A DNA stretch of 12,182 nucleotides, taken from IMG/VR virus record IMGVR_UViG_2526164690_000021. The stretch is one strand, 5' to 3'. Shown piece by piece: positions 7,279 to 7,920 of the stretch. The DNA is from a virus. Lineage: Duplodnaviria > Heunggongvirae > Uroviricota > Caudoviricetes. The position numbers were made by a program, and so were the translations under genes. Every line of letters starts with the position of its first letter. Within the stretch, counting starts at the first letter, position 1. The notes below the pieces were generated by a model that searched no databases, was not told the DNA's origin, and saw only the letters and a list, made by a program, of their open reading frames with translations.

Positions 7279-7920
7279 ATGCGTGATTACGCAAAAGTTT
7301 CTCCGCGATTCTGGCTGGGAGAAACGGGGAGAGAACTTAGAAAGGCGGGTGCAGAAGCGCAAGTTGTTGCTTTTTACCTGATGACATCCCCTCACGCAAA
7401 TATGCTGGGTTTGTATTACCTGCCAGTTTTATACCTTGCTCATGAAACCGGGCTTGGTCTGGAAGGGGCTTCAAAGGGGCTTAAAAGGGCTGTTGAAGCT
7501 GGTTTTTGTAGCTATGACCATGATGCAGAGATGGTCTGGGTCCATGAAATGGCAGCCTGGCAGGTTGGGGAAACGTTGAAGCCTGGCGATAACCGTTGTG
7601 CAGGTGTCAGGAATGAGTATGCATCATTACCTGAAAACGCTTTTCTGTCAGTGTTTTACGACAGATATAAAACGGATTTCCATCTGGATGTGAGGCGGAA
7701 TAATAGCCGAAATTCGGTAAGGGGCTTCGAAGGGGCTTTTAAGGGGCTTCGAAGCCAAGAACAGGAACAGGAGCAGGAGAAAGAACAGGAACAGGACAAA
7801 AACACTATGGTTCATGGCAAAAAAACACCACGAACCAGGCAGGGGATGTTCAGACCGTCAATCCTGGTCAGCCAGCAGGCACGACACCGGAAGCCGATTC
7901 GGGCGCTGTGCAGCAGGTGA
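7279..7920 (+). CDS. Replication initiator (O-like / YdaU-like), N-terminal part with low-complexity EQ-rich linker
   Basis: ATG 7279 with GAGG 5 nt upstream, MRDYAKVSPRFWLGETG...; the track ORF starts at ATG 7168 without SD. Contains iteron-like repeats; reading frame continues into 7908..8369 if the A7 run at 7819-7825 is A8. Confidence 0.6.
   Translation: MRDYAKVSPRFWLGETGRELRKAGAEAQVVAFYLMTSPHANMLGLYYLPVLYLAHETGLGLEGASKGLKRAVEAGFCSYDHDAEMVWVHEMAAWQVGETLKPGDNRCAGVRNEYASLPENAFLSVFYDRYKTDFHLDVRRNNSRNSVRGFEGAFKGLRSQEQEQEQEKEQEQDKNTMVHGKKTPRTRQGMFRPSILVSQQARHRKPIRALCSR
7463..7492 (+). repeat. Iteron-like direct repeats (AAGGGGCTT x2 plus a degenerate third copy, 11-bp phasing)
   Basis: AAGGGGCTT at 7463-7471 and 7474-7482, AAAGGGCTG at 7484-7492. 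Confidence 0.4.
7719..7749 (+). repeat. Iteron-like direct repeats (AAGGGGCTT x3, 11-bp phasing); candidate ori
   Basis: Exact 9-mers at 7719-7727, 7730-7738 and 7741-7749, followed directly by a purine-rich tract. Confidence 0.45.
7759..7800 (+). repeat. Imperfect hexanucleotide tandem repeat (GAACAG)n, 7 units, encoding EQEQEQEKEQEQDK
   Basis: Units GAACAG GAACAG GAGCAG GAGAAA GAACAG GAACAG GACAAA read directly from the sequence. Confidence 0.7.

Follow-up and report, generated by a model that had tools for sequence, protein, structure and literature searches.

At this locus, the gene for a replication initiator is read as two overlapping open reading frames that meet at a run of seven A residues (AAAAAAA, positions 7819–7825, plus strand), and the question it raises is whether the split belongs to the organism or to the sequence file. 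The stretch of DNA analysed here, 12,182 bp in length and referred to as the window, corresponds to contig AIGH01000010.1 of draft assembly GCA_000249835.2, and the stretch of that contig that we fetched (L013) was a perfect substring of the window. An earlier note on this DNA had suggested three causes for the split: a sequencing error, a decayed gene, or a slippage site that makes two isoforms. Because nearly all of the close Escherichia coli relatives carry one more A at this position, together with an intact gene of 363 residues, a sequencing error of one base almost certainly accounts for the split, which exists in the file but almost certainly not in the organism. We regard it as very probably an assembly artefact, in which a run of eight A residues (A8) was undercalled as seven (A7) in AIGH01000010.1. 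The sequencing chemistry would have shortened the run by one base, and a single coding sequence of 1,092 nt (363 aa) would consequently appear as two frames.

The first of these frames, ORF1 (7279–7920, plus strand), opens at ATG 7279, with the sequence GAGG five bases 5′ of the start codon, and is closed by TGA 7918–7920 to give a product of 213 aa. Residues 1–182 of this product are authentic, and an out-of-frame tail begins at codon ACA 7825. The downstream frame, which encodes the authentic C-terminal half, is open from 7743 to 8369 (plus strand), with a preceding TAA at 7740–7742 and a stop codon at 8367–8369. Examination of the reading frames in the window confirmed that the two are open together over 7743–7920, and the third frame is likewise open, over 7814–7963. 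The candidate start codons of the downstream frame are, in order, GTG 7908, GTG 7917 and ATG 7920, and none of the three is preceded at a workable distance by a Shine-Dalgarno-like sequence, in agreement with the earlier claim that the second ORF lacks a usable ribosome-binding site. A stand-alone start could be made only at GTG 7908 or ATG 7920, neither of which has a good ribosome-binding site; AGG 7915–7917 lies just 2 nt ahead of ATG 7920. The out-of-frame stop of ORF1 (TGA 7918–7920) overlaps ATG 7920–7922 of the downstream frame in the sequence GTGATGA, an arrangement like that of a translational-coupling junction; since the tail of ORF1 is not in frame, the likeness is probably a coincidence.

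Insertion of one A into the run restored a single gene (7279–8369, plus strand) encoding a protein of 363 aa, with an N-terminal domain, an EQ-repeat linker and a C-terminal domain. The sequence of this protein is identical to RefSeq WP_001205823.1, annotated as a single coding sequence in E. coli O157:H7 strain PV15-279. The prediction that an A8 reading would fuse the two ORFs into one initiator of about 360 aa was therefore correct. Identity between the corrected product and the RefSeq entry is 100%, and the window copy differs in being one A short.

A search of the entire window against 5,426 complete E. coli genomes placed strain 12089 and two O111:H11 strains at the top, with window positions 1–11501 covered in them by 11,506 bases. 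A base-by-base alignment with strain 12089 over 11,501 bases revealed exactly five differences and no substitutions, and all five were contractions of an A/T homopolymer by 1 nt in the window. Three of them are intergenic: an A4 run at 4760–4763 (A5 in strain 12089), a T5 run at 5815–5819 (T6 in strain 12089) and an A5 run at 10557–10561 (A6 in strain 12089). The other two lie within genes, namely the A7 run of the initiator (7819–7825; A8 in strain 12089) and a T7 run at 11361–11367 (T8 in strain 12089) in an alpha/beta hydrolase gene. The latter gene (10694–11466, minus strand; 257 aa, WP_000160654.1) is broken by its T7 run into two ORFs, one of 67 aa and the other of 191 aa. Grouped by their length in the reference, the contracted runs amounted to 2 of 2 8-mers, 0 of 5 7-mers, 2 of 24 6-mers, 1 of 45 5-mers and 0 of 143 4-mers, indicating that the contraction rate climbs with run length, a trend that is clear with the exception of the 7-mers. 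Five contractions without a substitution are the signature of systematic undercalling by a sequencing chemistry and not of evolutionary divergence.

These observations agree with what is seen for homopolymer-length miscalls in draft assemblies produced by flow-based or long-read chemistries. The likeness extends to differences that are confined to homopolymers and consist entirely of 1-nt contractions, to a frequency that rises with run length, and to recurrence in sibling assemblies, and we found no feature in the window that would distinguish it from such assemblies. At least two genes in the contig are broken by homopolymer miscalls, a point of quality control, and frameshifts at A/T runs in this contig should therefore not be taken as biology. 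At the end of the contig, positions 11502–12182 consist of an IS10-like element, the end of an IS4-family ISVsa5 transposase, copies of which, at 99.9% identity, are present in many genomes. The complete relatives run on into hokD at the point where the window enters this element (approximately 11502), which reflects either an insertion particular to this strain or a contig break caused by the repeat.

The distribution of the two run lengths among other genomes was strongly uneven. The exact 69-nt segment containing A8 was present in 436 complete E. coli genomes, and the exact 68-nt segment containing A7 in one, FORC_044 (CP016755.1), where the gene is annotated by the NCBI pipeline as a "frameshifted" pseudogene. 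FORC_044 was considered as the source of the window and was rejected, since its other four runs are of normal length and several SNPs differ. A literature search on FORC_044 returned nothing, and a search on the accession of the window returned one irrelevant paper only. In a collection of 15 billion proteins, the intact 363-aa sequence occurred on at least 1000 contigs, and the exact 213-aa product was found on 12 contigs in a cluster look-up and on 23 contigs in a contig look-up. Among the ten A7 contigs listed, seven come from a single accession series (AIFH, AIFI, AIFJ, AIFL, AIFN, AIFO and AIGH), the protein names of which point to the DEC strain collection, and which we take to have been made by pyrosequencing. 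Set against a complete O157 genome, six sibling drafts with AIF accessions all had A7 together with extra indels of their own, nearly all of which were 1-nt shortenings of runs, and a contraction of T8 to T7 was repeated in four of the six. The A7 form is found in drafts of different lineages, comprising O157-type drafts and the window contig, whose nearest relatives are O111:H11, and the complete genomes of both lineages have A8. A batch effect of this kind across different lineages is consistent with platform error.

A genuine deletion, in which replication slippage from A8 to A7 inactivated the initiator and left a decaying gene in a cryptic prophage, would produce the same split, and we consider it improbable. 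The A8 run is among the two longest homopolymers of the region, and thus the likeliest place for true slippage, and the replication genes of prophages in lysogens are under relaxed selection. In addition, A7 was the sole indel over approximately 7 kb in FORC_044 and in two unrelated drafts from 2024 (GCA_045755335.1 and GCA_045754105.1); the scaffold of a further A7 carrier, GCA_000215165.1, had one more 1-nt deletion. In these four assemblies A7 could be either an error or a real mutation, and its occurrence in FORC_044 and the two 2024 drafts implies either that the site is miscalled on several platforms or that it is truly mutating in some strains. Should the few A7 alleles of the independent assemblies be real, the site would illustrate, in a small way, how a homopolymer can drive the inactivation of a prophage replication gene. 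In the window itself, however, four further homopolymers are shortened alongside A7 and no base is substituted in comparison with three complete genomes, a pattern that would not be expected from evolution, and the recurrence of A7 in sibling drafts of the O157-type and O111:H11-related lineages, both with A8 in their complete genomes, likewise argues against a genuine deletion. Decay of the gene is possible, although unlikely, while the first of the three causes suggested in the earlier note, sequencing error, is strongly favoured by differences that are restricted to homopolymers and depend on their length.

The remaining suggestion, a slippage site, is less probable still, and we give it very little weight. 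At such a programmed site, ribosomal (−1) or transcriptional slippage would produce the complete initiator alongside a shortened protein that has the N-terminal domain only. The codons of the A8 allele, GGC AAA AAA AAC, do bring the A AAA AAC heptamer into phase for −1 frameshifting, and all three frames are open for about 100 nt past the run. A dnaX-type programmed −1 frameshift, which combines A AAA AAG with an upstream Shine-Dalgarno-like element and a downstream hairpin, similarly has an in-phase, A-rich heptamer. In the A8 allele, however, the heptamer ends in C and not in G, and in E. coli A AAA AAC shifts only weakly compared with A AAA AAG. Flanking stimulators are also lacking: the window sequence contains no Shine-Dalgarno-like element upstream of the run, and the 100 nt downstream of it (7826–7925) fold no better than shuffled sequences (z = +0.23; 120 of 200 shuffles folded as well). 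The site is not conserved in homologs, because the run is specific to the allele, being replaced by GTAAAAAAC in the allele of 1,513 genomes and by GAAAAAATC in another; the GAAAAAATC allele is without the heptamer, and an A/T run of at least 6 at the junction was present in none of ten distant homologs. Moreover, the A7 template of the window would require +1 or −2 events instead of −1, and seven or eight A residues are below the run length for efficient transcriptional slippage. An unconserved run, without structure and without a Shine-Dalgarno-like element, therefore gives no support to slippage isoforms. It is conceivable, if highly unlikely, that the A8 tract in the linker is a genuine contingency or slippage site, and that A7 variants, perhaps including FORC_044 and the two 2024 drafts, or slipped transcripts give rise to an N-terminal fragment that binds the origin but lacks the domain recruiting the helicase. 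If this were true, such a fragment could hold back prophage replication in a dominant-negative manner.

The lengths of homologous proteins agree with a one-base error. All of the homologs examined are single ORFs of 259–369 aa, the opposite of the outcome that, according to the earlier note, would have refuted its reading, namely two separate proteins with their own starts at this junction. The commonest E. coli allele, present in 1,513 complete genomes and including the phages Tritos and Evi, reads GGC GTA AAA AAC and encodes 356 aa, and a third E. coli allele reads GGC GAA AAA ATC and encodes 369 aa. Similarity to the allele of 1,513 genomes begins at approximately 7799, right after the EQ linker, and in these genomes the same C-terminal module is joined to another N-terminal domain, annotated as "phage replisome organizer". 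Judging from the alignments, mosaic recombination has joined the two modules at the linker, at approximately 7799. A DnaC-like gene downstream was absent in the three loci of the 1,513-genome allele that we examined. A megablast search of a phage collection matched the C-terminal half only, at 91–92% identity in seven phages, and in all six annotated records the match lay within a single coding sequence.

Ten distant relatives of the N-terminal domain (L019–L028), from Betaproteobacteria, a Desulfatiglandales MAG and a Sorangium MAG, shared 27–64% identity with it and were also single ORFs, of 259–360 aa. Each consisted of the N-terminal domain, an SQEQEQEQE linker and a variable, unrelated C-terminal domain; QEQEQEQE was one of the scan patterns, and the conservation of the linker in distant homologs is therefore partly an ascertainment effect. 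The next gene in five of the ten loci was lambda-P-like in one, DnaB-like in three, and a match to a RecA-type ATPase (AAA_25/KaiC) in the fifth. Over 15 homologs, then, the architecture is modular and contained in one ORF, and the C-terminal domains differ as the downstream partner gene differs.

The split product has also entered the databases. The exact half-proteins, of 213 aa and of 149/153 aa, are deposited under many GenBank accessions, and the two halves are matched separately by PHROG 25210 (207 positions; 7279–7920) and PHROG 18526 (157 positions; 7908–8369). The alignment to PHROG 25210 includes the out-of-frame tail, extending over ORF1 residues 1–209. It seems that the artefact, or a rare allele, has seeded spurious protein families, and the artefact is now present in databases.

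As far as family matches and gene order can tell, the true gene is an ordinary and already annotated replication initiator (replisome organizer) of a lambdoid prophage. The corrected protein matched PHROG 1701 ("DnaD-like helicase loader") from end to end (E = 9e-149), and its C-terminal half matched PHROG 3729 (replication initiation protein, 1e-125), PHROG 270 (replication initiation protein, 2e-27), PHROG 26426 (replication protein) and PHROG 9327 (primosomal protein). Pfam gave no match for the corrected protein, nor for five of six homologs, the sixth having a sub-threshold match to a CID domain only; the family is without a Pfam model. The gene follows YdaS (cro-like) and YdaT and is followed by a gene for a DnaC-like helicase loader of 248 aa (8376–9122, plus strand), which matched Pfam IstB_IS21 (5e-19), NCBIfam PRK12377 (2e-152) and DnaC PRK07952 (4e-88, below the curated cut-off).

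We can postulate certain activities for the domains from the family annotation, the gene order, and the variation of the C-terminal domain with the downstream partner gene. The N-terminal domain may bind the origin, possibly through AAGGGGCTT repeats within the gene itself; the EQ-repeat linker would serve as a flexible tether between the N-terminal and C-terminal domains; and the C-terminal domain may recruit the host helicase by way of the DnaC-like loader that is encoded directly downstream. By the logic of lambda O and P, in which linker-joined domains have a C-terminal part matched to the helicase or its loader, we infer that the two halves must be one polypeptide in order to work. Like the lambda O/P module, the window gene is early-right, after the cro-like YdaS gene and YdaT, specifies two domains, and has a helicase-loader gene directly next to it. 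The lambda ori is located inside the O gene, and the initiator gene of the window resembles it in having internal, helically phased 9-mer repeats followed by an A-rich stretch. In contrast to lambda, the initiator is without any Pfam match, lambda O families included, its partner is DnaC-like and not P-like, and the iteron role of its repeats is putative.

These repeats form two clusters of exact AAGGGGCTT units spaced 11 bp apart, both on the plus strand. The first cluster has two units (7463–7482), and the second, directly followed by the EQ linker and an A-rich stretch, has three (7719–7749). The window contains five exact copies in total, compared with 0.10 expected, and none of 200 shuffles reached five, indicating that the clusters are not due to chance. 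Their layout resembles that of origin iterons embedded in an initiator gene, as in lambda O. The region encoding the EQ-repeat linker (7757–7796, plus strand) is itself repetitive, with GAACAG repeats and with AAGAACAGGAACAGGA occurring twice at a distance of 24 nt.

The last 23–24 codons of the initiator (8298–8366) encode a tail, GTNNQRCVNHISEPDTEIPPGFRG, that closely resembles the very C-terminal end of DnaT, the primosomal protein of the host. The match was to PDB entries 6aep, 2ru8 and 9zbt and to positions 156–179 of NCBIfam NF002770. A PDB sequence search with the corrected protein matched only this 24-residue DnaT tail and no informative domain. The similarity suggests that the phage initiator may copy a short motif of host DnaT, and the DnaT-like tail accounts for the annotation "Primosomal protein I" in phage Evi.
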